Shown: piece after piece, positions 3,399 to 25,565 of the stretch
Position numbering within the stretch: the stretch's first letter is position 1
How the letters are laid out: each line of letters starts with the position of its first letter
Assembly (NCBI GenBank): GCA_050250895.1
Contig: JBFWNU010000002.1
Location: 128,001-192,000 of the forward strand
Length of the DNA stretch: 64,000 nucleotides
Origin: Vulcanimicrobiota bacterium
GTDB lineage: Bacteria; Vulcanimicrobiota; Xenobia; Xenobiales; JADMJV01
Reading direction: 5' to 3'
Made by a program: the position numbers and the translations under genes
Notes under the pieces: model-generated
What the model was told of the DNA's origin: nothing
The model's input: only the letters and a program-made list of their open reading frames with translations
Databases searched by the model: none

Positions 3399-4541
3399 AT
3401 GCGAATCGATGCAGCCACTCCAGCCAGGCAACCTCTCACCGCCGTCAGCGCCTATATCGACGCCAAGTCGGCTCATATCGAAACCCTCAAGCTAAGGGCC
3501 GTGGACCGCTTCGAGCGGGCCGAGCACCAGGCTGACGGTCAACTGCAGGTGCTGCTTGACGGCCAGCGTCACTCGCGCACCCACGACGGTCTGCTCTTTA
3601 CCGCCATCGGCCTTCTTCCCGCTGCCCTGTGCACAGCCGCCGGCTACACCATGGCCGGTTCTGTCGGCGCTCTGGCCGGAACCGGAGCCGGCCTGGCCCT
3701 GTTCGCGCTACCGGCCACCTTCTTTCTCCACCGGGCTCTCAAAGCGCCCCAGTGGAAAGCCGAGCAACGTCTGGAAATCAACGGCCCCAGCCGTCCCTCG
3801 CTTGAGCCAGCCGGCACTCAGCGGTTGGCCTCGCTGGTTGAAGAGAGCCGTAGTCGGGCTCCTCAAGCTCGCCAGATACTCTTCTTGAGCGGTCACGGCA
3901 ACCGCAGCCAGGTAGCCAACATGGACATGGAAGCCCTCGGCCAGAGCATGGGCGACCACCCCGTCGACATCACCATTCTGGACGCTTGTCTGGTGGGCCA
4001 GCTCGAGGTCATGTCCAGGCTAGCGCCGTGGGCCGGTCTGGTGCTGGCCTCGGCCCATCCCATCCGGGCCCGGGGTCTTGAGCTCGAGAACATCCTGCGG
4101 CCCGAGCACCTCAACCAGCCCGATGCCACCCAGGCCGCCGTAGCCATGGCCAAAGAGGCGGTCAGCACCACCCCGAGCTTTGCCGTCATCGACACCGCTC
4201 GCCTCCAGAGCCAACTGCTACCGGCCCTGGATCGGCTGGGTGAACGGCTGGCGGCCGACCCCGGGCCAGTGCGCCCGGTGCTGGCCCAAAGCTTGTCGAG
4301 CAATGGCTTGTTAAGTGCCCGCGTCGATCTGGGCAGTTTCTTGACCAAACTCAGTGAAGCTCGACCCGACCATCAAGAGGCTCAAGAGGCGCTGCGGGCC
4401 TATCGGGCCTGCGTGCCTTTCCAGAAGAACCAGCACGGAATCTCGTTTCATCTGCGGGCAGGTCGCAACGATCCCACCCTGCCGCTCGGCTGGCGAAAGT
4501 TCCTGACTCAGCTCGATCGTGACTTCAAGCCTCTCTGGTAG
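3399..4541 (+). CDS. Clostripain-like (C11/caspase-fold) peptidase with N-terminal TM hairpin
   Basis: LFLSGHG and ILDACLVGQLEV His/Cys dyad motifs; GGGAG SD before ATG 3399. Confidence 0.7.
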   Translation: MRIDAATPARQPLTAVSAYIDAKSAHIETLKLRAVDRFERAEHQADGQLQVLLDGQRHSRTHDGLLFTAIGLLPAALCTAAGYTMAGSVGALAGTGAGLALFALPATFFLHRALKAPQWKAEQRLEINGPSRPSLEPAGTQRLASLVEESRSRAPQARQILFLSGHGNRSQVANMDMEALGQSMGDHPVDITILDACLVGQLEVMSRLAPWAGLVLASAHPIRARGLELENILRPEHLNQPDATQAAVAMAKEAVSTTPSFAVIDTARLQSQLLPALDRLGERLAADPGPVRPVLAQSLSSNGLLSARVDLGSFLTKLSEARPDHQEAQEALRAYRACVPFQKNQHGISFHLRAGRNDPTLPLGWRKFLTQLDRDFKPLW

Positions 4542-4830
4542 AGAACTCCTCGAGGCATTCGATCTGGGCCGCCCGCAGGGCCAGCCCGCGCAACTCGTCT
4601 AGTTCGGTCACGGCCGCCAGGGACGCTTCGAGAGCCTTGGGCAAGGCGCCGAAACGACCCACCAAAAGAGATACCACCATCTGGCGCGCCCCTTCCAGTT
4701 GGCCCTCCTGGCGACCCTCAGCCCGGCCTTCCTGGCGACCCTCAGCCCGGCCTTCCTGGCGACCCTCAGCCCGGCCCATCTCAAGGCCCTTCTCGATACC
4801 CATCTGTTCAATCGAGGAAATATACGGCAC
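4525..4830 (-). CDS. Predicted internally initiated small C-terminal protein (RpnS-like)
   Basis: In-frame GTG at 4830 preceded by AAGGAGG-acaac. Confidence 0.55.
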   Translation of the reverse strand: MPYISSIEQMGIEKGLEMGRAEGRQEGRAEGRQEGRAEGRQEGQLEGARQMVVSLLVGRFGALPKALEASLAAVTELDELRGLALRAAQIECLEEFSTREA

Positions 4831-5538
4831 GTTGTCCTCCTTCTCATACTCTGCCAGCTTCTCTAGAAAATGTAAAGAGTGTGGCGGTGGCAGAGCCATC
4901 AGCCAGTCTAACAGTCGGATCAACTTTGCGATGTCGCCTCGGCTAAAGCCTCGATGGAAGAGACCCCGATAGAGGCGGGCCTTTGTCTCGGCCCGCTTCT
5001 TGTAGTTGCGGCGCGTGGCCTGGGTCCAGAGGTGAAACGACACAAAGGCTGCGAAAGGGTTCTGGTTGTTTTCGAGTTCGTCGAGGCGGGGGCGCAAGTC
5101 GGTCAGTTTCACGACCGGAAACTGGAACTCGGTGCGACATCCAAATCGCTCCCAACTGAATCCTTGTGGACGCCAGCTTGGCGAGGGGTCCGCCAGAATG
5201 GCCAGGCTGCAGATGTCCTCACCGAACCGGTCGAACACGCGATAATGATAGACATAGGCGCGACGAGCAAAGTCCCGGTCATGCTGGGTTTGGACCTCGA
5301 TCTGAAAGTAGAACCGTCCCGGTCGGCCGTTGCGTTGGCGCGCCTGCAGGAGCAGGTCGGTTCGTCTTGGGCCAGCCCTGGCCTGGCGAGTGACGGCTGA
5401 GAGTTCCTTGTCTAGCGAAACGACCGGCGCAGACCAATCGAGTTGGGCGGCGATAGCGGGAAAGAAAAACTCTAGAAACGGTTGGAAGAAGTCGACCAGA
5501 GCGTCTTTCCAGGGAGAATCATAGGCATCGTTTGGCAT
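4525..5538 (-). CDS. Rpn/DUF4351-type PD-(D/E)XK nuclease (putative transposase family), intact
   Basis: YDSPWKDAL, LDKEL, DLLL, QIEVQ and RAYVYHYRVFDRF motifs, xEGR repeats and RFG C-terminal domain. Confidence 0.9.
   Translation of the reverse strand: MPNDAYDSPWKDALVDFFQPFLEFFFPAIAAQLDWSAPVVSLDKELSAVTRQARAGPRRTDLLLQARQRNGRPGRFYFQIEVQTQHDRDFARRAYVYHYRVFDRFGEDICSLAILADPSPSWRPQGFSWERFGCRTEFQFPVVKLTDLRPRLDELENNQNPFAAFVSFHLWTQATRRNYKKRAETKARLYRGLFHRGFSRGDIAKLIRLLDWLMALPPPHSLHFLEKLAEYEKEDNVPYISSIEQMGIEKGLEMGRAEGRQEGRAEGRQEGRAEGRQEGQLEGARQMVVSLLVGRFGALPKALEASLAAVTELDELRGLALRAAQIECLEEFSTREA
4706..4776 (-). repeat. 24-bp tandem repeat x3 encoding AEGRQEGR
   Basis: tcctggcgaccctcagcccggcc(t) repeated three times. 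Confidence 0.95.
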
Positions 5539-5602
5539 GGTCGTGGCTACTTCGCCAGAGTCGACGATGGCCCCGTCGAAGGAGTTGCTAACTCTTGTTC
5601 AC
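5539..5602 (-). promoter_or_regulatory. Conserved 5' leader, copy 1 of 3
   Basis: + strand cccgtcgaaggagttgctaact; ttgctaact starts 47 nt from the start codon, as at 13680 and 30528. Confidence 0.6.
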
Positions 5603-8600
5603 GATTGGTTCGCTGGCGAACCTATCAGCCTCCGGTAGGTCTGCTCTAGCAAGGGATGGCTCTCTCGCAGAGCGCGCAGGTCCAGGCGGGGTCCGAAGGC
5701 CCGTTCGAGCACCAGGTAGTCCCTTAGAGTGGCCCACTGGGCGGCCTCATCCATCAACTCTCCCAGGCGAAGGTGGTGGGCTCGGCGAGCCAGGGCCTCG
5801 CGCAGGGCCGGTCGCTCCAAAACGCTAGTGAGCCAGGGCCAGCCGGTCATGATATCGAGGCCCTCGGCCAGTCGGTGCAGTTGGTCATCGGCCAGGTGGG
5901 GCAGCCAGGCCAGCGTACCACCGGGAATTTGCTCACTGGCCAGGGCCGCTTGCAGTCGGCGCTCAGGCGAAATCACATCGGCCAGACCCAGCCCCCCTTG
6001 CCGACCACCACCCAGGCGGAGCCACTGGTCGAAGGCGATCCCGTCGCCCGCCAGGGCCTGGGCCAGCAGCGAGCCCTCCAGGCGAACGTCTCGGAAACCG
6101 GGCGGGGGCTCTCCCGGAGTCTTTCCCTGCGACCAGGCAAATAGGTTGAGGGCTTTGTCCGTCACGGCGCCGGTCAGACCGTAGCGCTGGGCCACCGCCC
6201 GGGGGTCGACCAGCCCCAGCCAGGCCACTGCTTCGAGCAACTCCGACGGCTTGCCCTGACCGCGTCGCAGGGCGCGCACCAATCGCCGGGTTAGTCGCGG
6301 CAGGGCCAACTCGCGCAGCGCGTTGAGCCAGTCGGGCTCGCGGCTCCACTCCAGGCCGGAGGGTGGCTCGTAGCTAGCCGCAGAGCCACCGCAGCGAGCC
6401 GCCGCCCGGGCCAGGGTCAGGCTGGTAGGATGGCGCTCGAGCAGATTCTCGAGCCAGTGGCGGTCGCGCGGGTCGGACTGAGTGCCCAGCGCCAAGGCCG
6501 TCTGCTCGAGTTCGTCCATCTCTCGGCAACGGCGCAGGCGGCGACGCAGGGGGCCGGTCAATTCCGGCAGGCGATGGCGCTGGGCCAGCCTCACCAGGGC
6601 GGGTTGCAACCGACCTTTCCAGCGCCGGCCGCCGAGATAGATGCGACCGTCTCGCAGCCAGGCCACCTCGATGAGATCCGTCACCCCAGCCACCGTTACC
6701 GAGGCCAGGCTCAGCAGGTCTTGCAGGCAATCCAGCAACTCTTCGATAGGCAGCAGCACGAGAGCCGGCGGAACTAGAACGTTGCCGCGGTGTTCGTGCC
6801 AGCTGCCGCCTACCCGGCCACCCGCCGACAGACGCAGAACGCGAGCCAGTTGACGCATTCCCTGCAGGCTGGGGCGGCAACCCTCGATAAGCGCCGAGAG
6901 CTTGTGATAGACCGGCCATTCGAGCCAGCCAAACCACCCCTCCCAGCTCAAGGCCACCAGCGTTTGGAGAGGATAGAGCGAGTTCAGCATGCTGGTCGAG
7001 GTGGGCAGGCCCCAGCGTATCCACCAGAACAGGTCCGAAGCACTGGCCGGAACAAAGCCCGGGCTGGTCAGACCCGATCGCAAGCAGAGCGAGGCCCAGG
7101 CCTGGCGACCATCGGACTTGTCTGGCCAACCGGTGGGGGGGCGAACCGACTGGTTGGACCAGGCCACCTCGCCGTCGTCGTACCAACAGTCGAGCGTTTC
7201 CAACGATTCGGGCTTGCCGCGCCCGGTCAGGCGCAATCCGCAGCGGGCCGCAAAACGGCGGCAGAACTCCTCCATCACCAGTTCGCCACCATGGAGGTGG
7301 CTGTAGGTATGATAGCCGAGCAATCCGCCGCCGTTGGTGGCGGCCAGTAGTTTGCGCATCACGATCTTGCCTTGCTGATCCAGACCGTAGACCACTCGCT
7401 TGTTGACCTCCAAGGCATTGAGCACGGCGCTCGAGGCGCACGAGCCACTTTCGAGCGATAGACAGGTGCCAAACGGCACGCCCATCTCGACGATTTGCCA
7501 GGGATCGTTTTCGACTCGCAGAGTCACGGCCCGACCGCTAATCTCGACCCTCTCCTCCAACCCGTCAAGCCAGGCCCGCACCTGCAGGCCACGACCGGCG
7601 GCCTGCTCCAGCCAGGCACGATTTTTGGGCGCCTGTTCACGCCAGTTCGAGAAGTTCCGCAAGCGCTCGAACAGTGGACCCAGCTCTAGCCCCACCCCCA
7701 AGAGGCGGGCTACCCGCCGTGGGTTCTCCTGGGGACCCTTCAGGCGCGTCAACAGCCGCCCGCAGGCTCGCTCTTGGGCCAGCTCAAGACAAGCCCGGCG
7801 CTCGCGCTCGAGAGCTTTGGCCAGATACTTGGCCTGCCGCCGGCCGTTGGCTCTGGCCAGACGCCAACGATGGGTGGGGTCTTCCAGGCGAGCCAGCCGA
7901 GCACTCAACTCGGACCTTTCGGGATAGTCCGCCACCAACTTGCGCAGGACAACCAGTTCGCGGCCATCGTCAGGCTCGAGCCGGGCCGGAAGGGGCGGTT
8001 TGCCCTGCCATTCGCGCAAGCGAACCAGTTCGTCGAGTCCACCCTCGGCCGGCGGCAGGGCGGCCAGCTCGTCGGTCAGGCCAGTGGACGGAAAGAGTTC
8101 ACCGATCACCGAGAGCAGCCTGGCCGTCGGTCGCTTGATTTCTGCCAGCAGCGACAACCCGAAGGCCTCTTTGTGCCCGGCTCGCTGAGCCAGGTTTTTC
8201 AAGGTTTCAGGGGGCACGCCGGCTTCGACCAGTCGGCAATACCAGGTCAGCAAGCGTCGATACTGGCGGCGGCCGAGATTCCACGCAAAGGGCAGGTCCC
8301 GGCCGGGCGACAGCTCGAGGGCGCGCACCACCAGGCTCGCTTCGCCCCCTAGCAAAAAGACAGCCCGGTAGGCCGCTGCCGAGCCAACAGAGAACAGTCG
8401 CGCGGCCTCATTCCAGGCCTTATCCGAGGCTTGCCGAGCCTCGTCCACGAACTCTAGCACCGTGGGGTCGGTCCCCTCCAGGGGCAGAAAGCGACCGGGC
8501 ACAATCAGCGACACGGCCAGGGCCGAGACCCAATCCCGCTGCTCGACCTGGGCTAGGCTGCGAGCCAGCCAGGCCTGTCGAAACTGACCCAGTCCGCTTT

Positions 8601-9132
8601 CCCCGTTGCCGGGGCACAGCGCCATCAGTTCTTCGAGCGACAGCGACAATTCGCCGGCCAGACGCAAGAAGAGACGGGCCTGAACCTGGCGACCCCTTCC
8701 GAGGAATCGCTGGTCAGTCCAGCCTTGCGCCCGGTCGACCCTGCGCAGGTGCGGCCGCCACGGACCCAGCAGGGCGCGCAGCGCGTAGCGCACCGCTGGG
8801 GTCGAGTAGAGCTGGTAGATGAGCAGCAGCGCTCGCCTGGCCGGTTCGGTGAAGTCGACTGGCAGGTGAGCAAAGACGGGCACTTCAAGCTGTGGCGGTT
8901 TGGCCAGTGTCCCCAGTCTGGCCCGCCGGGATGAATCCAGGCGCAGAGCCCGAGCGCCCGTGGCCGCAGCCAGCTGGGCGGGACACGGCGCCAGCTCGTC
9001 GAGCAACAATTCTGCCAGCCTCCGCGGACAGGGAGGCTGAGCGGCCGGCTGCAAGAGCCACCATTCTCCGGTGCTATGAAGGTAGCGAAAGCCCCGTTTT
9101 AGATCGCGTTTTCGCACAGCTAATATTGGCAT
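5599..9132 (-). CDS. Large hypothetical protein (1177 aa)
   Basis: Long ORF with host-like codon usage; central enzyme-like block EMGVPFGTCLSL..NKRVVY..RKLLA; helical C-terminal part. Confidence 0.8.
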   Translation of the reverse strand: MPILAVRKRDLKRGFRYLHSTGEWWLLQPAAQPPCPRRLAELLLDELAPCPAQLAAATGARALRLDSSRRARLGTLAKPPQLEVPVFAHLPVDFTEPARRALLLIYQLYSTPAVRYALRALLGPWRPHLRRVDRAQGWTDQRFLGRGRQVQARLFLRLAGELSLSLEELMALCPGNGESGLGQFRQAWLARSLAQVEQRDWVSALAVSLIVPGRFLPLEGTDPTVLEFVDEARQASDKAWNEAARLFSVGSAAAYRAVFLLGGEASLVVRALELSPGRDLPFAWNLGRRQYRRLLTWYCRLVEAGVPPETLKNLAQRAGHKEAFGLSLLAEIKRPTARLLSVIGELFPSTGLTDELAALPPAEGGLDELVRLREWQGKPPLPARLEPDDGRELVVLRKLVADYPERSELSARLARLEDPTHRWRLARANGRRQAKYLAKALERERRACLELAQERACGRLLTRLKGPQENPRRVARLLGVGLELGPLFERLRNFSNWREQAPKNRAWLEQAAGRGLQVRAWLDGLEERVEISGRAVTLRVENDPWQIVEMGVPFGTCLSLESGSCASSAVLNALEVNKRVVYGLDQQGKIVMRKLLAATNGGGLLGYHTYSHLHGGELVMEEFCRRFAARCGLRLTGRGKPESLETLDCWYDDGEVAWSNQSVRPPTGWPDKSDGRQAWASLCLRSGLTSPGFVPASASDLFWWIRWGLPTSTSMLNSLYPLQTLVALSWEGWFGWLEWPVYHKLSALIEGCRPSLQGMRQLARVLRLSAGGRVGGSWHEHRGNVLVPPALVLLPIEELLDCLQDLLSLASVTVAGVTDLIEVAWLRDGRIYLGGRRWKGRLQPALVRLAQRHRLPELTGPLRRRLRRCREMDELEQTALALGTQSDPRDRHWLENLLERHPTSLTLARAAARCGGSAASYEPPSGLEWSREPDWLNALRELALPRLTRRLVRALRRGQGKPSELLEAVAWLGLVDPRAVAQRYGLTGAVTDKALNLFAWSQGKTPGEPPPGFRDVRLEGSLLAQALAGDGIAFDQWLRLGGGRQGGLGLADVISPERRLQAALASEQIPGGTLAWLPHLADDQLHRLAEGLDIMTGWPWLTSVLERPALREALARRAHHLRLGELMDEAAQWATLRDYLVLERAFGPRLDLRALRESHPLLEQTYRRLIGSPANQS

Positions 9133-9184: not shown

Positions 9185-10009
9185 GTGATGAAACGATTGC
9201 TACTGGGGATCATCACCGCCGCCTGGCTGGTCTCACCAGCCCAGGCCTGGAACGCCGAAGGCCACCGGACTGTGGCCGAAGTGGCCGGGCCCGACCTGTC
9301 GCCCCGCGCCAGGGCCGAGATTCGCCTGCTCTTGCACGAGCATCCCGACCAGGACATCAGTCTGGCCGAGGCCGCTGTCTGGCCCGACAAGATCCGCGAC
9401 GACGAGCGCTACGACCATCCCGAGTGGCACTACACCAACATCCCCTTCTTCGACGGGGTGGCCCCTCGCCGTCTGCCCGACCGTGTCGACATTCGCTGGG
9501 CCATCAATCACAACACTCGCATCCTTAAAGACCGGCGAGCCAGTCGACGCCAGAAGGCCATCGCCCTGAGCTGGCTGGCCCACCTGATCGGCGACATCCA
9601 CCAGCCGCTGCACGCCACCAGTCGCTTCGCGCCCGAGACTCCCAACGGTGATAGGGGAGGAAACGACTACCTCATTCATCTGCGCCCTGACGACGAGGGG
9701 GTCAAGCTGCACAGCTATTGGGACGCCGCCGGCGGCCTCTATCTGCACGGAGCCAACAGCAGCCGGGTGGTCCACCTGGCTCGCGATTTTCGGGCCGAAC
9801 TGCCCCGGGTCGAGGCAGAGGTTGCCGTGGTCGACCCGCGCGCCTGGGCTGATGAAAGCCACGACCTGGCCACCGAGGTTGTCTATCACGACCTGCATCC
9901 CGGTGACCTGCTCTCGAACGACTACATCACCAGGGCTCGCCAGACGTCGAAAAAGCGGATGACGCTGGCCGGCTACCGCCTGGCCGATTTTCTCAATCGA
10001 GTCTTCTAG
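9185..10009 (+). CDS. S1/P1 nuclease, secreted
   Basis: Signal peptide then WNAEGH, WPDKIR, WHY, HLIGDIHQPLH, GDRGGN and LHSYWD. Confidence 0.93.
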   Translation: MMKRLLLGIITAAWLVSPAQAWNAEGHRTVAEVAGPDLSPRARAEIRLLLHEHPDQDISLAEAAVWPDKIRDDERYDHPEWHYTNIPFFDGVAPRRLPDRVDIRWAINHNTRILKDRRASRRQKAIALSWLAHLIGDIHQPLHATSRFAPETPNGDRGGNDYLIHLRPDDEGVKLHSYWDAAGGLYLHGANSSRVVHLARDFRAELPRVEAEVAVVDPRAWADESHDLATEVVYHDLHPGDLLSNDYITRARQTSKKRMTLAGYRLADFLNRVF

Positions 10010-10041
10010 AAGTCTTCCAGGCGAACCACCCGGGCCGCGAG
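10006..10041 (-). pseudogene. Tiny remnant of an Rpn 3' end
   Basis: Encodes LAARVVRLEDF*. DNA aagtcttccaggcg matches the Rpn ends at about 12465 and 18729. Confidence 0.55.
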
Positions 10042-10084
10042 CCCACCTCTGGACCAGTCACCAGCCGGCTCGTGCCAACCGGCT

Positions 10085-10118
10085 AAAGAAAAAGACGCGA
10101 TCCGGAGACCGCGTCTTT
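10085..10118 (-). terminator. Intrinsic terminator closing ncRNA copy 1
   Basis: Minus strand AAAGACGCGGUC-UCCG-GAUCGCGUCUUU-UUCUUU (G-U pair only in this orientation). Confidence 0.85.
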
Positions 10119-11241
10119 CGAAGCTCGCCTTCTTCCCAGTCCAGCCAGCCTGCTTCGCTTTTTCGAGTCGAACACTCTAACATTCGCCTTTGACGCTGGG
10201 GCGTCACGGTAAATCGAATGTTACCGTTGCCTGGCCGCCTTCCCACCTGCACCAGGCTCCCGTGGTCCGCCTAAGCCGGCTCTTGTCGCCAAGATTTTCT
10301 CCCTCGCGGGACCGTCTAGTGCGCCGGGCCTCGTTTCGAATGCCTTCAGACGAAACGCTGCGCATTGCTCTGGTCTGTATGCTACCCCTGCTCCATTTTT
10401 CACGCTCTCGCGTCGCGGTTTCTAGCAGTTCCGCCCCCGCTTTCGGCGCCTTCGCGCCCGGCCCGAGTTGCCACCCATCGGCTCCACCGCCGTGGGCTTT
10501 CAGGCGATGCCTCGCCTTCCGTTTTGTCCAGTCGGCTCTGGGCGATTCTGCGGTCTGATCGCAACCCCGAAGTCTTTGGCGAGAACTCTCATCCTCGCGC
10601 GGCCACCTTCGTTCCGCTGCCCGAGTGCCGTCCTGCTCTCGAGCCCCCACTTCTACCCATCGCCGGCGCTGCTCTCGAGATGTCTCTCGGTCAGCCTTGA
10701 CCCTCGCGGTTCCGACCCGGGCCGTGGGCCCTGTCACCCCAACTAGAGGGCGACTTCAGCATCTCTTTGGGTCGATGCACCCCTGCGCTCTTTGTTCACA
10801 GCCTGCCGGCTGTCGCGGCTTGAGTTCTCGCTTGCGCTCGAACCGTCGCAGTTCCGCTGTTGTGCGCGTCACCGCACTCCCCACATCACCGGGCGGGGCC
10901 GGACACCTTCAGGCAGGTGCTCCTCACTCTCTCTTGCCACCGTGGAGTGGCGCGGCCTCGAGTGTTCCGCTGCCCGGTCACCAACCGGACTTCTCGCTTG
11001 GCCTTGTCTGGCGGCACTTCCGGGTTACCCCGGTCGCCCTTTCCCCTCGCGGGTTCCAAAGCCGGCTATCGAGCCTGTCTTCGTCTTTCCAGTGAAGACC
11101 CTGGAGACGCTTGCTGGTGCATCGCTTGCGCGGTAGACCACGAAGGTTTGCGTCTAACCTCTAGCGCTTCGACCGTGACCCGTCGGGGACGCTAGGCCCC
11201 TCCGCCTCTCTCGCTTGGCGGGGCGACTCCGTGACTGGAGT
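10086..11241 (-). ncRNA. Candidate large structured ncRNA (~1155 nt), class unknown, copy 1
   Basis: Bounded by a sigma70 promoter and a terminator, with no credible ORF. Purine-rich minus strand with GNRA hairpins (10301-10310, 10824-10843, 11020-11033) and a 9-bp stem at 10178-10186/10215-10223. Duplicated. Confidence 0.75.
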
Positions 11242-11247
11242 GAATGC

Positions 11248-11276
11248 AATCTATCCCATCTCGCTCGATCCGTCAA
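11248..11276 (-). promoter_or_regulatory. sigma70-type promoter
   Basis: TTGACG-17 bp-TAGATT on minus strand, with an A-tract upstream (about 11283-11290). Both hexamers are identical in copy 2 while the spacer varies. Confidence 0.8.
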
Positions 11277-11337
11277 CCCCTGATTTTTTCAGGCTTTGAA
11301 GCTCTCTAAGGCCAGTCCTGATCTGGGTTTTGCGTGT

Positions 11338-11380
11338 TTGTCCACCGGGTTATCCCCAATCGTGTGTCCGTTTGTTCACA
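11338..11380 (+). promoter_or_regulatory. Three co-oriented DnaA-box-like 9-mers
   Basis: TTGTCCACC, TTATCCCCA and TTGTTCACA (1-2 mismatches to TTWTNCACA); conserved in copy 2. Confidence 0.4.
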
Positions 11381-11475
11381 AGCTGGCAACCCGATGTTTG
11401 CCTTCTGTTCGTCGTCGGCGTCGAGGCAAGGCGCCCTGGTCGCCAGGCTACTAGATCGGTCACGAAGAATGTCCG

Positions 11476-12459
11476 ATGATGCGGAACCTTCTCTTGCTGA
11501 CCTGCCTGCTGGCGCTGGCCGCCTGCAGCCGGCCCAGTTCACCCGTGGTCGAGACCCCCCGAGCAACCCCTTCGGCCGCTCCGGTGAAAGCTTTGCCCGC
11601 CTTCTCGGGCAAGCTCATCCGCGAGTTCGAGCACGATGGGTTTTACGATCAGTATCTGGCCTTCAGTCCCGATGGGAGGTATCTGCTCAGCTGGCTGCCC
11701 GAAAAGGTGACGGTCTTCGAGGTGGCCTCCGGCAAACCAACCGGAAAGTTGCCCGAGGGACATTTTCCCCTGGGTTTCTCGACCGACGGCAAGACTCTCA
11801 CCACTGGCGGGGACGGTGTGCTCGAGAGCTGGAAGCTGCCCTCGCTCGAGCCACTCGGTAAGACCAAGACCGTCAAGCAGACGGGCGCTGATGGTTTTCG
11901 CCTGGTCGAGTGGAAGAGCGGCAAGAAGTCGCTGCTGGCCGCGGGAGGGCGGGTGATGGCCTGGCCTTCGGTGGCTAAGGACTACCCCGTGAGCCCCTAC
12001 AGTGTCTACTACTCGAGCGGGTCAAACCTGCTCGCCTTTTCGAACGGCCAGGCGGCCACCGTGCTGGATCCTGCTCACGAGGAGCAGGCCTGGGACACGC
12101 CCGCCCTGGGTCGCAGCGTCACCAGTCTGGCCGTAAGCCACGACGGCAAACTGCTGGTCTCGGGCAGCATGGACGGCTATGTCAGTGTGGTCGACATTCC
12201 GTCGCGCCAGCTGCTCGCTGCCGACGGCGTGCCTGGAGAAATTCGCTGTCTGACGCTTGCGTCCGACAATCGCACCATCGCGGTCGGCTGCGGTGACGGG
12301 ATGTCGGCGGTCGCGATCCTCGATGCCGCAAGCCTGAGGCCGGTGGGCGTCGTCAAGCCGGGCCTGTCCAACACCTGGGCGCTAGCCATCAGCCCTGATG
12401 GCAAGACCCTGGCCACCGGCAGCGATGATGGCAAAATTCGCCTCTGGCAGCTGTATTAA
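11476..12459 (+). CDS. WD40-repeat lipoprotein
   Basis: Lipobox LAAC; AFSPDGRYL, AVSHDGKLLVSGS.DG and AISPDGKTLATGSDDGKIRLW. Confidence 0.9.
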   Translation: MMRNLLLLTCLLALAACSRPSSPVVETPRATPSAAPVKALPAFSGKLIREFEHDGFYDQYLAFSPDGRYLLSWLPEKVTVFEVASGKPTGKLPEGHFPLGFSTDGKTLTTGGDGVLESWKLPSLEPLGKTKTVKQTGADGFRLVEWKSGKKSLLAAGGRVMAWPSVAKDYPVSPYSVYYSSGSNLLAFSNGQAATVLDPAHEEQAWDTPALGRSVTSLAVSHDGKLLVSGSMDGYVSVVDIPSRQLLAADGVPGEIRCLTLASDNRTIAVGCGDGMSAVAILDAASLRPVGVVKPGLSNTWALAISPDGKTLATGSDDGKIRLWQLY

Positions 12460-12800
12460 AGCAAGAAGTCTTCCAGGCGGCCCACCTGGGCCGCTTTGAG
12501 GGCTAACTGCCGGAGTTCCTCCAGGTCGTTGAGTTTAGCCAGACTTGCTTCGAGTTCGGCTGGTAATTCGCCAAATCGCGAGGACAGCAACGACTTGACC
12601 ATCCAGCGAGAGTTCTCGATCTGACCTTGCTCCAGTCCAACCTGACGGCCTTGCTCGAGTCCAACCTGACGGCCTTGCTCAAGTCCAACCTGACGGCCTT
12701 GCTCGAGTCCAACCTGGCGACCCTGCTCGAGGCCTTCCTGACGGCCTTGTTCCAGGCCCTTCTCGATACCCATCTGTTCGAACGAATGAATGTAGGGCAC
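12456..12800 (-). CDS. Predicted RpnS-like internal small protein
   Basis: In-frame GTG at 12800 preceded by AAGGAGG-acgcc. Confidence 0.55.
   Translation of the reverse strand: MPYIHSFEQMGIEKGLEQGRQEGLEQGRQVGLEQGRQVGLEQGRQVGLEQGRQVGLEQGQIENSRWMVKSLLSSRFGELPAELEASLAKLNDLEELRQLALKAAQVGRLEDFLL
12625..12758 (-). repeat. 24-bp tandem repeat x5.5 encoding LEQGRQ(V/E)G
   Basis: ccttgctcNagtccaacctgacgg units. Confidence 0.95.
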
Positions 12801-13456
12801 GGCGTCCTCCTTTTCATACTCTGCCAGCTTCTGGGCAAATTGTAAAGAGTAGGGCGGTGGCAGGGTCATCATCCAATCCAATAACCCGGCTAGCTTTAGA
12901 ATGTCGGCTCGGCTGAGCCCTCGATGAAACAACCCACGATGCAAGCGGGCCTTGATATCGACCCGGCGGCGATACTTGCCCTGAGTCGCCTGCGTCCATA
13001 GGTGGAATGACACGAAGGCCGCGAAAGGGTTCGGGTGTTCTTCGAGCTCGGCCAGGCGCGGCCGCAGGTCGAGCAGCTTGACGGTGGGGAAGTGGAACTC
13101 CAGCCGGCAGCCGAAGCGATCGCGCATGAAGCTCCGAGGCCTCCAGGTCGGCGAGGTGTCGCCCAGGATGGCCAGCGAACAGAGATCTTCTCCGAAGCGA
13201 TCAAAGACCCGATAGTTGTAGATGTAGACCCGGCGGGCGAAGTGGTCGTCGGTTTGGGCCTGGACTTCCACCTGGAAGTAGAACCAGCCTGGGCGACCGT
13301 CGAGCAGGCGCACCTTGAGCAGCAGGTCACACTCGCGCGGGCCCATTTCGGCCTCGCGGGTGATAGCCTGCAGCTCCTTATCGAGAGAGGTTACCGGCTC
13401 AGACCAGTCGACCGCACTGGCGATAGCCGGGAAGAAGAACTCCAGGAAGGGCTGGA

Positions 13457-13589
13457 CCACCTTCGGGCGTCGGCCCGGCCGCGGCTTGACGGGAACGGCG
13501 AGAACGCAAGATCAGAATAGGAGGCTGGGCAGGGTCGGGCGTTCTCGCCGCTCCCTTCGGCGCTTCGCGCCGCGCCGCTGGGCCGACTT
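13457..13589. mobile_element. Small palindromic (MITE/REP-like) insertion
   Basis: Nested inverted repeats 13491-13507/13539-13555 (16 of 17) and 13469-13476/13580-13587; flanked by TGGA direct repeats at 13453 and 13590. Confidence 0.55.
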
Positions 13590-13633
13590 TGGATGGCGTC
13601 TTTCCAGGGCGAATCATAGCAATCGTTCGGCAT

Positions 13634-13697
13634 AGCCGTGAATGCTTCGGCGAGGCTCGAGACCGTCCCGTCGAGCGAATTGCTAACTTCCGTTTAC
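13634..13697 (-). promoter_or_regulatory. Conserved 5' leader, copy 2 of 3
   Basis: agaccgtcccgtcgagcgaattgctaactt at 13660-13689 is 29/30 identical to 30508-30537. Confidence 0.65.
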
Positions 13698-13741
13698 TCC
13701 CGGTTCGAGGGCGAATGCAAAGAGCCGCGAACCTTCTCTCC

Positions 13742-15085
13742 ATGGCAAAGAGCGAGTTTCTGGCCTTGCAGCGGGCCGTCGGTCGGGTCGATTCGAGCGG
13801 AACCTTCACCGTCGCGGGCCATCAAGCGGCCTTCAAGCTGGGAGCTCACCAACTGCCCCGCTCGAGCGCCTGGATCCTCAAGCTGGTTCAGGCCGCCGTG
13901 GTGAGCGGAGCCGAGCAGATCCGAGTTCGACAGGGAGCGGTGGCCACCGAGATTCGCTTTCAGCCTGACGAACTGCCCGAACTCGCCCAGGTTCAGGCCG
14001 CTTTCGAGAAGCCGGCCGGGAAGCACTCGCGCTTTCTCACCCATCTGCTGGCCGGGCTTTTGTCGGCGGCCGTGGGTCAGGGCCGCCCCTTCACCCTTCG
14101 CCTGAGCCAGACCGACCAGCAGACCGAGTTCGTCTGGACCGGCGAAGAGCTGTTGCAAAGCGCTCGGACCCGCCCGGCCAAGAACCTGGAGGTCTTCATC
14201 GGAGTAGCCCGAGCGGTCGGAAATCCGGCTGCCCAGAACGCGGCCGAGGCCAAGGAGTTGCAAGAGCTGGCTCACGCTTGTCCGGCCGATCTGGTGCTCG
14301 ATGGGCGTCGTCTCGACCCGGTGGCTCTGACCCACCCTCGGCCGGCTCCCAAACTGGTCTCTCACTGGCCCTATCGTTTCTCTTCGAAAAACGGCATCGA
14401 GGCCTGGATCTATCTGGCCGTGGGCGGCCTCTCGGGTCAGGGCCTGCGGCTGGCTCCTAGCGTGGCCCGCTCGGCCCATCGTCGAGCCCTCTCCGACCGC
14501 CTCACCGATGCCCGACCGCTACTGGTGGCTCTGCCCGACGACCCCGATTGCCTGGCTCTGTTTAGATTGGATTACTTCTACGACCTGGGCCGCCAAAAGC
14601 CAATCCCTCGGGCCTCCACCTGCCGCTGGCTGGTCGATGGGGTGGTGGTGGACCAGCACGATTTGCCCCTCGATGAAAGTGGGGTGGCCCTGACGCTCTA
14701 CCTCGACGGTAGCGACCTGGCGACCGATCTGTCTGGCTTCGCCTTCCAGGGCGACACGGTCGACACGCGCAATCAGCGCATCGACCAGGCTGTCGAGCGG
14801 CTGCATCGCGAACTTCCCGAGCTTGGCTCACAGCTGGGCCGCAGCCCGACCCGACCCGGCTGGAAGTACACCATCCTTGGCTTCCTTTGGTGCCAGCTCT
14901 GGTTTAGCCCATTCTATTTGCTCGTCACGCCGCTGGCGTTGCCCCTGGTTCCTTACACCGCTGTGGCCACTCTGGCCGACCTGCGCTCGACCAAGCGCAC
15001 CCTGATCAGTCATCTCGCCGCGGCCCTGGAGCTTTTTCATCTAGGCCTCGGCCGTCGGCCGGCTGAGGCACTCTCCGCCGACTAA
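13742..15085 (+). CDS. Hypothetical protein with degenerate GHKL-ATPase-like N-terminus and C-terminal TM helices
   Basis: G..DSSGTFT..QLP....WILKLVQAAV motif; hydrophobic C-terminus; start inferred. Confidence 0.65.
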   Translation: MAKSEFLALQRAVGRVDSSGTFTVAGHQAAFKLGAHQLPRSSAWILKLVQAAVVSGAEQIRVRQGAVATEIRFQPDELPELAQVQAAFEKPAGKHSRFLTHLLAGLLSAAVGQGRPFTLRLSQTDQQTEFVWTGEELLQSARTRPAKNLEVFIGVARAVGNPAAQNAAEAKELQELAHACPADLVLDGRRLDPVALTHPRPAPKLVSHWPYRFSSKNGIEAWIYLAVGGLSGQGLRLAPSVARSAHRRALSDRLTDARPLLVALPDDPDCLALFRLDYFYDLGRQKPIPRASTCRWLVDGVVVDQHDLPLDESGVALTLYLDGSDLATDLSGFAFQGDTVDTRNQRIDQAVERLHRELPELGSQLGRSPTRPGWKYTILGFLWCQLWFSPFYLLVTPLALPLVPYTAVATLADLRSTKRTLISHLAAALELFHLGLGRRPAEALSAD

Positions 15086-15119
15086 AAAGAAAAAGACGCG
15101 ATCCGAAGACCGCGTCTTT
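15086..15119 (-). terminator. Intrinsic terminator closing ncRNA copy 2 (possibly bidirectional)
   Basis: Same stem as copy 1 with a C(UUCG)G loop and U-tract; lies directly after the convergent stop at 15085. Confidence 0.85.
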
Positions 15120-16238
15120 CATAGCTCGCCTTCTTCCCAGTCCGGCCAGCCTGCTTCGCTTATTCGAGTCGAACACTCTAACATTCGCATTCGACGCTGG
15201 GGCGTCACGGTAAATCGAATGTTACCGTTGCCTGGCCGCCTTCCCACCTGCACCAGGCTCCCGTGGTCCGCCTAAGCCGGCTCTTGTCGCCAAGATTTTC
15301 TCCCTCGCGGGACCGTCTAGTGCGCCGGGCCTCGTTTCGAATGCCTTCAGACGAAACGCTGCGCATTGCTCTGGTCTGTATGCTACCCCTGCTCCATTTT
15401 TCACGCTTTCGCGTCGCGGTTTCTAGCAGTTCCGCCCCCGCTTTCGGCGCCTTCGCGCCCGGCCCGAGTTGCCACCCACCGGCTCCACCGCCGTGGGCTT
15501 TCAGGCGATGCCTCGCCTCCCGTTTGTCCAGTCGGCTCTGAGCGATTCTGCGGTCTGATCGCAACCCCGAAGTCTTTGGCGAGAACTCTCGTCCTCGCGC
15601 GGCTGCCTTCGTTCCGCTACTCGAGTGCCGTCCTGCTCTCGAGCCCCCACTTCTACCCATCGCCGGCGCTGCTCTCGAGATGTCTCTCGGTCAGCCTTGA
15701 CCCTCGCGGTTCCGACCTGGGCCGTGGGCCCTATCACCCCAACTAGAGGGCGACTTCAGCATCTCTTTGGGTCGATGCACCCCTGCGCTCTTTGTTCACA
15801 GCCTGCCGGCTGTCACGGCTTGAGTTCTCGCTTGCGCTCGAACCGTCGCAGTTCCGCTTTGTGCGCGTCACCGCACTCCCCACATCACCGGGCGGGGCCG
15901 GACACCTTCAGGCAGGTGCTCCTCACTCTTTGACCACCGTGGAGTGGCGCGGAGTCGAGTGTTCCGCTGCCGGTCACCAACCGGACTTCTCGCTTGGCAT
16001 TGTCTGGCGGCACTTCCGGGTTGCCCCGGTCGCCCTTTCCCCTCGCGGGTTCCAAAGCATGGCCTTCGAGCCTGTCTTCGTCTTTCCAGTGAAGACCCTG
16101 GAGACGCTTGCTGGTGCATCGCTTGCGCGGTAGACCACGAAGGTTTGCGTCTAACCTCTAGCCCTTCGACCGTAGCCCGTCGGGGGTGCTAGACCCCACC
16201 GCCTCTCTCGCTTGGCGGGGCGACTCCGTGACTGGAGT
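15087..16238 (-). ncRNA. Candidate large structured ncRNA (~1150 nt), copy 2
   Basis: As copy 1. The GUAA loop becomes GCAA (16016-16029), still GNRA; indels relative to copy 1 break putative ORFs. Confidence 0.75.
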
Positions 16239-16244
16239 GAATGC

Positions 16245-16273
16245 AATCTAACCCATCTCGTCCGATTCGTCAA
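16245..16273 (-). promoter_or_regulatory. sigma70-type promoter
   Basis: TTGACG-17 bp-TAGATT. Confidence 0.8.
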
Positions 16274-16334
16274 CCCCTGATTTTTTCGGGCTTTGAAGCG
16301 TCTCAAAGCCAACCCCGAGCAGGGTCTTGCGAGT

Positions 16335-16377
16335 TTGTCCACCGGCTTATCCCCAGCAGCGTGTCGGTTTGTTCACA
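16335..16377 (+). promoter_or_regulatory. Three DnaA-box-like 9-mers (copy 2)
   Basis: Identical 9-mers and spacing to 11338-11380. Confidence 0.4.
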
Positions 16378-16516
16378 ATCTGATAACCTGGTGTTTACAT
16401 TGCACGGTCGACTTGGTGAGTCGTCAATTAACCTGTTTGTGACGCCGGGCAGCTACCTTGAGCTCTATACTTGTGGTGGCCAAGTCTCTCTCACGAACCC
16501 AATGCAGGAGGAGCCC

Positions 16517-17302
16517 ATGAAGGTTGGCTCAATGAAGCGCCAACAGGCCATTGGTGCGCTCGAACGTCGTCAGCAGGCCGCTCTGTGTCAGGGAGATCAA
16601 GATCTCGCTACCCAGCTCTCGAAGGACCTGGTCTTCATCAAGAAGAGTCGCGGCGGCACGGTGCTCGACATGTATCGAGGGGCGGTTCGCCGCAGTCAGC
16701 GCGAGGATTGGGTGGCCCAGCACACCAGTCTTTGTGGCGCGGTCGGCGGGGCGACCCTCGGAACGACTGCCGGGGCCGTTATCGGCCAGGTGAGCGGCGG
16801 GACGGCCGTGCTCGGCGGTGTATTGGGTTGCCTCCTAGGGACGGCCTTTGGCGCCCTGGGTGGTCTGGCCTATAACGACTTTTATGACTGCCCGCATGTC
16901 GGTTCTGACATCGTGGCAGCTCTCGATCGCAACGCTTCGCTTTTGGCTAGCGAAGTCAGCCAGCCGACCCACCAGCTGCCCACCATCGCTCGCAGCGAGG
17001 TCGAAAAGCAGCTCAACAACGACAAACAACTTCTCTCTGACGAGGGCAAATTGGCCGAGACCATCCAGCTCGAGAACGCTCTCAACCGGTTTAACAGGCA
17101 CTCTGACATGAATCTGAGCGATCTGCTGATCTGGGCCCTGAGCGAGCGCAACTCTGCCACGGTAAAGTCGCTGGGCACGCTGCTGAGCCACGAGATGACC
17201 ACTGATGAGATCAAGCAGCTGATGGTCACCACCGAACCGGGCAGTCTGGAGTGGCTCGAAGACGAGATCAAGATCGGCGACCAGACTCTGCCCAGAGTCT
17301 AG
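16517..17302 (+). CDS. Hypothetical glycine-zipper membrane protein
   Basis: AGGAGGAG SD before ATG 16517; GxxxG-rich hydrophobic hairpin. Confidence 0.8.
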   Translation: MKVGSMKRQQAIGALERRQQAALCQGDQDLATQLSKDLVFIKKSRGGTVLDMYRGAVRRSQREDWVAQHTSLCGAVGGATLGTTAGAVIGQVSGGTAVLGGVLGCLLGTAFGALGGLAYNDFYDCPHVGSDIVAALDRNASLLASEVSQPTHQLPTIARSEVEKQLNNDKQLLSDEGKLAETIQLENALNRFNRHSDMNLSDLLIWALSERNSATVKSLGTLLSHEMTTDEIKQLMVTTEPGSLEWLEDEIKIGDQTLPRV

Positions 17303-18724: not shown

Positions 18725-18967
18725 TTAAAAGTCTTCCAGGCGAGCCACCTGAGCGGCTCGCAAGGCCAGCCGTCTCAGCTCGGCCAGGTCTTGTTGGGCC
18801 GCCAGCGACTCTTCGAGTCCGGGAGGGGTTTGCCCAAAGCGCGCGGCTAGCAGCGAAACCACGGTGTGACGAGCCTCGTCTAGTTGGCCGGATTGGTGGC
18901 CCTGCTTTAGGCCCTGCTCAAGGCCCTTTTGGATACCCATCTGCTCGATCGAAGAAATGTAGGGCAC
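18725..18967 (-). CDS. Orphan RpnS-like protein (Rpn C-terminal domain only)
   Basis: VPYISSIEQMGIQKG...RFG...RLEDF. Keeps the AAGGAGG SD; Rpn homology ends at about 19009 and the nuclease domain is missing. Confidence 0.7.
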   Translation of the reverse strand: MPYISSIEQMGIQKGLEQGLKQGHQSGQLDEARHTVVSLLAARFGQTPPGLEESLAAQQDLAELRRLALRAAQVARLEDF

Positions 18968-19083
18968 GGCGTCCTCCTTTTCATACTTTGCCAGCTTTTC
19001 GAGGAATTGTCGAGGAAGGCGGCCAAAGTCGATGCACCTGGCTAATCCTCAAGGCAACTGACAGGCGGACGGTCGCCGGGACC

Positions 19084-21234: not shown

Positions 21235-22113
21235 TTGGCTGGTAGGTTGGCTCGCGAGGTCCGGGTCGACTCCCCGGCGGTCGACGTTTTGTTGGCTCAG
21301 GACGTACTCGTTGTCGCGGGCCGGGACCACCTCTCTGTGGTTGGACGCGACAGCAGAAGGAATTACCCCCTTTCCATCCAGGGCTTGGTGGCGGGCCCGG
21401 AGGCAAGTAGTGTCCTGTGTGTGGGGTCAGCGGCTGAGGCCGGCGCGCCAAGGCAGGTCTATCGGTTGGACACGGACACCAAAGCACTAGAGGCTATCGG
21501 CTCGCGCGCTATAGAGAGCTGGTCGAACAGGCACGACGGTGAGTTCTGGGTGGTCATCGAAGGCGACGAGGTGCACCTACTTCGGGCGAGGTCGCTGGAA
21601 CTCGAGAGAGCACATCGAACCTTCTGGCCGGTCTATACAGAGTTGTTCGAAGAGAAGCTCTACGTCGAGACCAGCAGTCTGGGAGCACGTCACTTTGAGG
21701 TGTTGTCCTATCCTGACCTGGCCCGGTTGGAGTCCGGTGATGTGCCCCGCTATCCTATCGACTTTCCCCAAGAGATTTGCAACCACTCTTGGCCCTCGCC
21801 CCGTGCCGAGGACCGGCGCTGTGCGGTTTGGCCCTGGCGGTCCACCGACGGTTCGCTACTTGCCCGCGTCATCACATCAAGTGGTGACGTTCTGGCCTAT
21901 CTCCCGTCGCGGGCCGAGGGCCTTGTCTGTGCTTCTGGCTGGACCGTCGTCTGGGCGCAGTGTGAACAGGGCCTGGAGTTTCAGCTCATCGGTGAGCATC
22001 CGCGCCGTTTTCTGCTTCCGGAGGCTGACCGAGCTTGCGCGAGATTCTGCCAGGGGAAGCTGTTGATTGGCGATTCTACAGGTCGGGTTCTTGAGATGGC
22101 TCTGGCCCCTTAA
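21235..22113 (+). CDS. Hypothetical protein
   Basis: 292-aa ORF filling the gap, co-oriented with the GIY-YIG gene. Confidence 0.55.
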   Translation: MAGRLAREVRVDSPAVDVLLAQDVLVVAGRDHLSVVGRDSRRNYPLSIQGLVAGPEASSVLCVGSAAEAGAPRQVYRLDTDTKALEAIGSRAIESWSNRHDGEFWVVIEGDEVHLLRARSLELERAHRTFWPVYTELFEEKLYVETSSLGARHFEVLSYPDLARLESGDVPRYPIDFPQEICNHSWPSPRAEDRRCAVWPWRSTDGSLLARVITSSGDVLAYLPSRAEGLVCASGWTVVWAQCEQGLEFQLIGEHPRRFLLPEADRACARFCQGKLLIGDSTGRVLEMALAP

Positions 22114-25100: not shown

Positions 25101-25565
25101 TGCGATGTCCAACTGCACGGCCTGGTCGAGATCCTTCATCAGCACTCGCCGCAAGGGGTCGGTGACATCGCCAGCGATTAACCGGCGTTCATCGTCGAGA
25201 TAGTTGGGCCGCCCCGGAATCACGCTCCGCACCCCGCCAGTCGGGTCGCCGACATCGCCGCGATAACGAGGGATCACGTGAACATGGAGATGAGGCACCG
25301 TCTGGCCGGCCACTTCGCCGACGTTGATGCCGATGTTGAAACCTTCAGGTTGGTGTCTCTCCAGGATTGCGTCCCGGGCGATCGCGACCGCCTCCATCAG
25401 TTCGCGCTGTTCGGCCGGCGAGGCTGCAAACCAATCCGACACCAGGCGTCGGGTCACCAGCAAAGCGTGCCCCGGGCTGACGGGGAAGGCATCCCACAGG
25501 CCCAGCACTTTGTCGCCCTGGTGAAAGACCAGCTTCGGGTCCGGGTCAAGAAAGGGTGAATTCAT
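22110..25565 (-). CDS. HIT-PLD-SF2 helicase-DUF3427 fusion (NgoFVII/type III-restriction-like)
   Basis: HLHVH (HIT), HPKSY..GSSNLT (PLD), ATGLGKT, DEFHH, TAT and QQLGRGLR (helicase), FQWQSQN (DUF3427). Confidence 0.92.
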   Translation of the reverse strand: MNSPFLDPDPKLVFHQGDKVLGLWDAFPVSPGHALLVTRRLVSDWFAASPAEQRELMEAVAIARDAILERHQPEGFNIGINVGEVAGQTVPHLHVHVIPRYRGDVGDPTGGVRSVIPGRPNYLDDERRLIAGDVTDPLRRVLMKDLDQAVQLDIAVAFILPSGIDLVEAHLKDLLQQRDGGLRIVTGDYLDLTDPDALIRLLDLEGKVELRVFETGRSRSGFHPKSYLLIDRNGRETAYVGSSNLTRPAWEETVEWNYRVVDEAAGLAQVRAAFESLFRHPYTVPLTYDWVERYRGRRRSPEALPRQPELVAEPLAPPPEPHEIQKEALAALQATREAGNRAGLVVLATGLGKTWLSAFDSRPFRRVLFVAHREEILNQARDTYRRIRPRARLGLYTGQEKVPEAEVLFASIQTLGKVSHHRLFDRKAFDYIVVDEFHHACATTYRRLIEYFEPTFMLGLTATPERSDGGDLLALCGQNLVYRCDLARGVEREYLSPFRYFGVPDEVDYANIPWRSSRFEPEALTNALATRQRAENALEQYRLRGGERTLAFCCSMLHADFMSEFFREHGLRAVAVHSGAASAPRAASLERLARGELDIICCVDMFNEGVDVPTIDTVMMLRPTESRILWLQQLGRGLRRAEGKSHLSVIDYIGNHRSFLLKIETLLAEMTGASGRASDAQLSHALKLIERGEFLLPTGCEVVYDLAAVDILRGLLRSPKKDEALRLYYEDFVHLQDHRPSAVEAYQDGYNPGDARGGFGSWLGFVRMMGGLSPAQDDAFVRNRSFLEDLETTKMTRSYKMVTLLSMLNQGRFPGSIALDELTDGFIRIAQRNAKLRADIAAPLEDAAKVRRSVAKNPINAWVQGNFFDFDGETFRSVGLEGSDAFLELVRELAEWRLAEYLDRPSSKSKAFEARLSHRGGKPVVSWEQTGPSPSGWTKLTVDGKAYHGEFLSSSLELVRDKEGGANSLPQLLRGWFGPDAGLPGTVHRVNFEPGSSGWEMLPVGLASQGPVRWKRYSREQIPGLFGLEFNTGSWNQGFVVSDRHVFLLVTLDKRDMPTAYTDHFLSSGVFQWQSQNRTVQDSKHGRIISQQAEDGLLIHLFIRPQKRSPFIYCGEVDFVDWEDERPITVRWRLHESVPSRLYEELGVPSA

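Follow-up and report, generated by a model that had tools for sequence, protein, structure and literature searches.

The subject of this report is a repeat on the minus strand of a 64-kb stretch of genomic DNA from a Vulcanimicrobiota bacterium (GenBank assembly GCA_050250895.1, contig JBFWNU010000002.1, positions 128,001 to 192,000), which is called the window in the following. The two copies of this repeat in the window, copy A and copy B, are very probably stand-alone genes, each reaching from a sigma-70-type promoter to an intrinsic terminator and encoding a structured non-coding RNA (ncRNA) of ~1.15 kb that is absent from Rfam 15. This giant RNA is made up of structured modules of ~190–280 nt that are homologous and follow one another in an array. 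In the type found in the window, divergence has left one canonical module and three degenerate ones, each of which is conserved among the close copies A to D of the same genome.

An earlier note on this DNA, made from the sequence alone, had described a repeat of positions 10085–11399 at 15086–16397. A repeat search of the window confirms it, with collinear blocks at 10085–11363 and 15086–16360 that are 89–100% identical per block and lie ~5000 nt apart, and BLAST gives 96% identity across a body of 1176 nt. The genes and their signals are as follows:

10085..11242, minus strand: giant ncRNA gene, copy A, ~1155 nt (alignment, BLAST and homologue extraction)
15084..16239, minus strand: giant ncRNA gene, copy B (96% identity with copy A)
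11248..11276, minus strand: promoter of copy A, -35 element TTGACG (11276–11271), 17-nt spacer, -10 element TAGATT (11253–11248), with an A-tract adjoining upstream
16245..16273, minus strand: promoter of copy B, TTGACG, 17-nt spacer, TAGATT (pairwise alignment and promoter scan)
10085..10118, minus strand: intrinsic terminator of copy A, 9-bp GC-rich stem with UCCG loop, then TTTTTCTTT (direct reading)
15091..15120, minus strand: intrinsic terminator hairpin of copy B, UUCG loop, then a T-run (terminator scan)

The start of copy A at ~11242 was placed by promoter geometry and by the 5′ end of an environmental contig (L196, see below) in a homologue. A promoter scan of positions 9900–16600 returned 4 promoter-like sites versus 0.6 ± 0.8 in shuffled sequences, and the promoters of both copies are among them. 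The terminator of copy A was missed by the terminator scan because the maximal stem takes up part of the T-run; it is the same hairpin as in copy B. The minus strand is strongly purine-rich (plus-strand GC skew −0.18, AT skew −0.28). The pairwise alignment bears out what the earlier note had read from the two copies: both promoter hexamers are invariant and the spacer carries exactly four differences, an A-tract lies upstream of the -35 element in both copies, and single-base insertions and deletions shift the reading frames. The GUAA loop within CCGGGG-loop-CCCGG becomes GCAA, the terminator loop UCCG becomes UUCG, and a hairpin with a T-run, that is a U-tailed terminator, closes each copy. 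Identity drops upstream of the promoter, so that the core is better conserved than the flank, as had been stated.

The same note had called the RNA multicopy, ornate and of unassigned class, without a credible open reading frame (ORF) and with several GNRA-capped hairpins seen only in the minus-strand orientation, and the results given in this and the following paragraphs agree with that description. Stops interrupt all six frames in each of 17 full-length homologues (see below), with at least two per frame and usually 4–36. The longest open stretch of copy A measures 183 codons versus 182 ± 52 in shuffles, and all five ORFs taken from the copies for comparison lack a Pfam match. We therefore rejected the protein-coding reading, given the stops in all frames of 17/17 homologues and the lack of Pfam matches among the five ORFs. 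That the repeat should be a protein-coding gene, or else a cis-regulatory leader of an adjoining gene, has next to no probability in our judgement: ORFs of up to 183 codons can indeed be drawn across copy A, but this is the length expected by chance, and the differences between copies A and B displace the frames, while a leader is hard to reconcile with an RNA that has its own terminator and with downstream genes that are convergent and unrelated between the copies.

Comparison with all 4227 models of Rfam 15 (cmscan) gave no match at the gathering threshold in the whole window. At E ≤ 10 over positions 9800–16700 there were merely three chance-level matches to unrelated families, and at E ≤ 1 none on six environmental arrays of the kind described below. 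No signal of a known self-cleaving ribozyme or of RNase P type is among the Rfam results. Since Rfam is empty at the gathering threshold and in E-value mode, a known RNA family was rejected as well.

The 9.5-Mb genome contains six copies of the giant RNA gene, namely A and B in the window and C, D, E and F on contig C1. Copies C and D are 88% and 83% identical to copy A, and E and F are divergent paralogues. The assembly, which is 99.6% complete, holds a single 16S rRNA gene (C1:2631049–2632564) versus these six genes. Among 15 further genomes of the family, 10 have BLASTN relatives, versus none of 45 genomes outside it; many matches are located where a contig ends, as is to be expected of a repeat present in several copies. 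From nine genomes, 17 full-length homologues with extracted lengths of 997–1648 nt were obtained. Their promoter elements and terminators, read by eye from the sequences, follow one scheme: all 17 show a -35 element TTGAC(A/G) and a -10 element TAnnnT followed by a conserved 5′ end (...ACUCCAGUCACGGAGUCGCCCC...), and all 17 end in a GC-rich hairpin with a T-run. In one related genome (L024/L033, G013:C57) two giant-RNA genes appear to be divergent, with promoter regions back-to-back at about L024:2673–2715, and their opposite-strand nhmmer matches overlap by ~40 nt at the upstream ends.

The core was aligned across the 17 sequences (alignment A5), and a structure of 38 pairs in seven helices was drawn by hand. 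In this structure 99.2% of 643 cells pair, versus 29–44% when the 3′ partners are slid by 1–3 columns, and 10 of the 38 pairs have changed on both sides. None of 500 shuffles matches the observed covariation score, a statistic that is inflated by the relatedness and non-independence of the sequences. The helix of columns 111–113/183–185 was drawn in place of an RNAalifold proposal because the switches from C-G to U-A and A-U support only the hand-drawn version. In the 5′ domain, compensatory change is seen in 28 of the 50 pairs that RNAalifold predicts. The structure belongs to one strand: conserved U-G pairs are valid on the RNA strand only (e.g. 17/17 at columns 213/255), and, counting stems of 4 bp or more, copy A has six GNRA-capped hairpins in the sense and one in the antisense orientation (0.9 ± 0.9 in shuffles).

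A covariance model of 223 positions (R1), built on the core, corresponds to one module. R1 matches lie head to tail within single RNAs, with three each in copies E and F, 3–5 per RNA in genus g2 and in family f2, and eight on the environmental contig L148, where they extend across the entire 1789 nt. In copy A two further weak matches (17.6 and 13.4 bits) accompany the canonical module, and the following units can be placed in the window:

10964..11190, minus strand: degenerate module 1 of copy A (R1 13.4 bits, E=0.004; nhmmer, RNA nt 146–285, E=1.5e-6)
10611..10820, minus strand: degenerate module 3 of copy A (R1 17.6 bits, E=2e-4; nhmmer E=7.5e-5)
10497..10568, minus strand: remnant of module 4 of copy A, region of hairpin P3 only (nhmmer E=0.0025; P3-like motif read directly)
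10221..10420, minus strand: canonical module 5 of copy A, the core and the part of the RNA that is conserved best (R1 213.9 bits)
15222..15421, minus strand: canonical module 5 of copy B (R1 213.9 bits)

A sequence-only module profile (nhmmer) finds four matches in each of copies A to D at matching positions, one full module (E ~1e-35) and three partial ones (E 4e-11 to 8e-3). When 39 distinct modules are aligned to R1, 93% of cells pair versus 36–44% in slid controls, and compensatory change is found in 37 of the 38 pairs; since the alignment, of 42 modules, had been fitted to R1, these pair counts lean towards the R1 structure. From an alignment of 35 modules made by MAFFT only, RNAalifold recovers just 14 pairs, 11 of them with compensatory change, and hence the module fold rests mainly on the model-fitted and the orthologue alignments. 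A weak R1 match was also seen on the opposite strand of one locus (L115).

The layout of the RNA is thus a short 5′ leader, tandem homologous structured modules and a 3′ tail with the terminator. Each module has a closing stem and a small hairpin, which is GNRA-capped in the type of the window. Its most invariant part is the nearly unchanging segment CAGGGGUAGC, which leads to a 4-bp hairpin whose 13-nt loop is conserved. Further elements are a long hairpin, a junction with a GNRA-capped hairpin and a variable hairpin, and a terminal hairpin GCCUGG...CCAGGC. The motifs GCGGAAC and CCGCGAGG, which recur along copy A, are explained by the CAGGGGUAGC part of the modules. In copy A as well as in its paralogues, a motif of the GCGGAAC type is conserved where modules end.

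A metagenome scan with a degenerate 23-nt pattern returned at least 120 contigs, of which the 80 listed were examined; the counts in this paragraph refer to these matches listed. Modules were matched in 76 of the 80 contigs, and 73 of the 76 are no longer than 3.7 kb. Arrays reach up to 13 modules in 3455 nt (L147), 12 in 2859 nt (L160) and 11 in 2977 nt (L170); these 11- to 13-module arrays have a spacing of 217–307 nt, and their contigs are cut at one or both ends. Thirty of the 76 module-bearing contigs start 49–63 nt before the first module, which is no more than ~15 nt away from the start that promoter geometry predicts in a genomic homologue (L116). Among contigs of the window's type, nine start inside the 5′ leader and two include upstream DNA (by eye). 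The contig L196 is 100% identical to nt 9–1632 of a 1648-nt stretch extracted from a related genome (G014): its first base lies 8 nt within the 5′ limit chosen for that stretch, and its last base 16 nt short of where the terminator T-run ends.

Such contigs could be DNA contigs broken at multicopy repeats, not transcripts. Their ends suggest transcripts, because repeat-broken DNA contigs would more likely run into the conserved promoter. Transcription of the giant RNA is supported only indirectly, through contig ends at the predicted RNA ends. From these ends and from the consensus-like promoters in 17/17 homologues, we infer that transcription may take place at a high level.

The taxonomic distribution was assessed with R1 in 151 genomes sampled from the phylum. 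At E ≤ 1e-4, 21 of them match, including the genome of the window (G000), and 130 do not. By family the result is:

Family f1 (without G000): 14 of 15 genomes with an R1 match
Family f2: 5 of 5 genomes
Family f5: 1 of 1 genome
Family f3, the sister family with genomes of 1.9–4.7 Mb: 0 of 19 genomes
Family f4: 0 of 3 genomes
All other families of the phylum: 0 of 107 genomes

The exact 23-nt degenerate pattern was also scanned over ~185,000 species with one genome each, giving 58 loci, 44 of which have R1 matches. The record titles of these 44 name Eremiobacteraeota, Vulcanimicrobiota or Candidatus Xenobia in 28 cases, ‘uncultured Burkholderiales’ in nine, ‘bacterium’ in five and ‘Selenomonadaceae’ in two. 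The last three groups look like mislabels and were taken as such, since records in them share contig number, coordinates and score with genomes of family f1 (the loci titled Burkholderiales or Selenomonadaceae are L071, L081, L082, L093, L105, L111, L122, L126, L127, L117 and L124). Fourteen of the 58 loci have no R1 match, and 12 of these come from other phyla and were counted as chance. By this test of pattern and model, the giant RNA appears to be confined to large-genome Eremiobacterota (Xenobia-type) lineages.

Phage and plasmid collections gave no match to the giant RNA. The pattern scan of IMG/VR returned one contig of 283 kb (L128), with a 35-nt partial hairpin at 100–134 (16 bits) that resembles the most conserved hairpin of the module and is followed by no further module sequence downstream; this match is probably due to chance. 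With no collection match and this single IMG/VR match at about chance level, a phage or plasmid origin was rejected.

Upstream of the RNA start, by ~95–108 nt, lies a pair of 9-mers that resemble DnaA boxes:

11338..11358, minus strand: DnaA-box-like 9-mer pair upstream of copy A
16335..16355, minus strand: DnaA-box-like 9-mer pair upstream of copy B

The 9.5-Mb genome has no more than six such tandem pairs, the two in the window and those at C1:114738, C1:1926440, C1:1144284 and C1:952335. Four of the six are upstream of copies A to D. One other pair belongs to a box cluster directly upstream of an ORF whose N-terminal motif is DnaA-like. A pair or a single box is present at this distance in 8 of the 17 homologous promoters. 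The pair before four of the six copies hints at a tie to replication or growth control.

No protein gene was found to accompany the RNA. The flanks of the six copies in the genome share no protein beyond the overlap of the A and B flanks, and the protein clusters seen across the 44 genome loci come either from synteny shared locally by close relatives or from spurious ORFs that fall on the RNA. Neighbours scanned with Pfam across loci include a clostripain-family peptidase, HisRS, FlhA/FlhB and a histidine kinase. A conserved partner gene was rejected on these grounds, as none is kept beside the RNA in the six own or the 44 genome loci, and the lack of a conserved protein neighbour argues against a cis-regulatory or operon role.

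With respect to function, we tentatively propose that the RNA works in its intact form, as a multivalent scaffold or a platform for sequestration, a role that it may quite plausibly have. Every module would present the same invariant single-stranded surfaces, so that one transcript could offer 3 to 13 equivalent binding sites to a partner, which may be a protein or other parts of the RNA. Dosage might be set by the number of modules, by the number of genes (six versus one for 16S rRNA) and possibly by DnaA through the upstream box pair. Intact action is suggested by degenerate modules that keep matching positions in copies A to D, by the presence of one leader and one terminator per array, and by the recovery of whole arrays as single contigs; the 30 of 76 listed contigs that start near the predicted start, and L196, which spans nearly the whole RNA of G014, point the same way.

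Several observations weigh against the interpretation as a structured RNA that works as a platform, in addition to the inflated shuffle statistics, the lean of the model-fitted alignment, the modest MAFFT-only result and the possible DNA origin of the contigs given above. The folding energy of the canonical module is no better than that of shuffled sequences (z = +0.36 sense, −0.65 antisense). Two specific sponges were considered and rejected: Shine-Dalgarno-like pentamers, as expected of a sponge for 30S subunits or the anti-Shine-Dalgarno sequence, are not enriched (3 versus 9.8 ± 3.4 in copy A), and CsrA motifs in six homologues show z-scores of −2.3 to +1.5 for GGA and of −1.7 to +1.1 for ANGGA. 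A CsrA gene is present in the genome. Module number and degeneration also vary widely, and such variation in the array would fit a precursor role or relaxed selection on part of it as well.

A polycistronic precursor, cut by an RNase or by self-cleavage into active module RNAs of ~200–260 nt in the manner of tandem tRNA or small-RNA arrays, is one of the other accounts of the repeat. Homogeneous arrays with regular periods of 224–260 nt and short linkers (L148, L160), a module number that varies freely from 3 to 13, and the motif kept at module ends are all in line with it. The modules of the window's type, however, are non-equivalent and yet each conserved across paralogues, which is unexpected for interchangeable units; Rfam gives no self-cleaving ribozyme or RNase P-type signal, and contigs spanning up to 13 modules would, if they are transcripts, mean that the full-length form persists. 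We consider the precursor unlikely. An RNA-only particle, closed and pseudo-symmetric through GNRA loops and other tertiary contacts, would be an intramolecular counterpart of the ROOL and GOLLD nanocages and might multimerise. A repeated module is a natural route to pseudo-symmetry, GNRA caps are in excess (6 versus 0.9 expected), no conserved protein gene lies nearby, and there is precedent, as PMC12286853 describes RNA-only homo-oligomers of ROOL, GOLLD and OLE. However, neither a tetraloop receptor nor inter-module covariation was identified in this analysis, 3 to 13 modules are hard to fit to a single closed geometry, and thermodynamic stability is unexceptional, which leaves such a particle rather improbable.

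Much less probable still is that the element acts as DNA, as a dispersed DnaA-titrating or mobile repeat with no RNA function. In favour of this reading are the number and dispersal of the copies, the frequent breaks of assemblies within the element, the DnaA-box pairs that precede four of the six copies, and the Rpn/YhgA-like genes in the neighbourhood. Against it, compensatory changes keep Watson-Crick and G-U pairs on one strand only, promoter and terminator are kept in 17/17 homologues, and no terminal inverted repeats, target duplications or transposase travel along with the element; the DnaA boxes lie outside the conserved body and accompany only 8 of the 17 promoters.

By its length of more than 500 nt, its non-coding nature, its covariation-backed multi-helix structure and its indirectly supported transcription, the giant RNA falls among the large ornate bacterial ncRNAs, which are a descriptive category and not a homology family. 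To our knowledge, few bacterial ncRNAs of more than 500 nt with complex conserved structure are known (OLE, GOLLD, ROOL). Sponges of the CsrB/RsmZ type carry many GGA or ANGGA motifs in hairpin loops and have a short GGA hairpin as their unit. The giant RNA resembles them in its repeated unit along one transcript, which suggests multivalent binding, but its unit is a multi-helix domain of ~200–280 nt in which GGA and ANGGA are not enriched. HEARO RNA is linked with an adjacent HNH/IscB ORF. With HEARO and omega RNAs the giant RNA has in common that it is large, structured and present in several copies per genome, whereas it matches none of their models and its flanking ORFs contain no HNH/IscB-type domain.

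ROOL can equal 16S rRNA in abundance, and the ROOL studied measures 659 nt; GOLLD is the largest of the three classes studied, with many members above 800 nt, and both have a phage or prophage context, often near tRNA islands (PMC12286853). The giant RNA is likewise very large, non-coding and multi-helix, with covariation-supported structure. In contrast to GOLLD and ROOL, it matches neither covariance model, is longer (~1.0–1.6 kb in genomes and 3.4 kb or more in contigs), consists of homologous modules in tandem and belongs to an Eremiobacterota lineage. It is also chromosomal and dispersed, with no tRNA in the window, no phage or plasmid match and unrelated cellular neighbours. OLE, of ~600 nt, occurs in Gram-positive extremophiles and anaerobes and forms a ribonucleoprotein (RNP) with Oap proteins (PMC9723947). 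It shares with the giant RNA, whose abundance is inferred, the character of a large, ornate, abundant, stand-alone ncRNA that probably works with partners. The giant RNA differs in having no OLE model match and no conserved protein neighbours, in being modular and in its phylum, as 28 of the 44 loci carry Eremiobacteraeota, Vulcanimicrobiota or Candidatus Xenobia titles.

In the literature we found no large ncRNA linked with Eremiobacterota, WPS-2, Xenobia or Vulcanimicrobiota, and no tandem-module giant bacterial RNA, supplementary candidate-motif lists of comparative-genomics papers aside, which could include the giant RNA. Whether it is to be called a new class depends on the definition: it is one in the sense of RNA family and architecture, and otherwise a new class within the loose ‘large ornate’ kind. 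A more far-reaching picture, which is possible and which we regard as rather doubtful, would be that of a new class of giant RNAs from 1 kb to more than 3.4 kb, exceeding GOLLD in size, that evolved by tandem duplication of an ornate module of ~200–280 nt. Such RNAs would fold into a pseudo-symmetric megastructure, either an intramolecular analogue of the nanocages of ROOL and GOLLD or a multivalent RNP offering 3–13 equivalent sites. In soil Eremiobacterota (Xenobia) several genes per genome, part of them controlled by DnaA, would give rise to abundant transcripts.

OLE, GOLLD and ROOL each opened new biology or RNA structural principles. The giant RNA is longer than all three, carries 3–13 tandem ornate modules and comes from the barely cultivated phylum Eremiobacterota (WPS-2). 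Single modules, degenerate arrays and homogeneous arrays make up a natural series of constructs for cryo-electron microscopy, and the family allows the evolution of RNA size and symmetry through duplication to be tested directly.

The neighbours in the window, which contains no tRNA that we could find, are an S1/P1 nuclease, a WD40 protein, a weakly Rpn/YhgA-like protein and ORFs without Pfam match. The S1/P1 nuclease gene (9185–10009, plus strand; Pfam E=3e-55) is convergent with the 3′ end of copy A at ~75 nt from the terminator, an arrangement peculiar to copy A that is not seen at the other copies. Very long ORFs are located at 5599–9132 (minus strand, 1177 amino acids, without Pfam match) and at 22110–25610 (minus strand, 1166 amino acids). 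The genes at 12456–13460 and 4525–5538 (both minus strand) are paralogues with 65% protein identity and weak matches to Rpn/YhgA-like (Transposase_31) and Yae1_N families; an 85%-identical DNA fragment is found at ~18898–18997, and the gene at 12456–13460 contains five 24-nt tandem repeats at 12601–12758.

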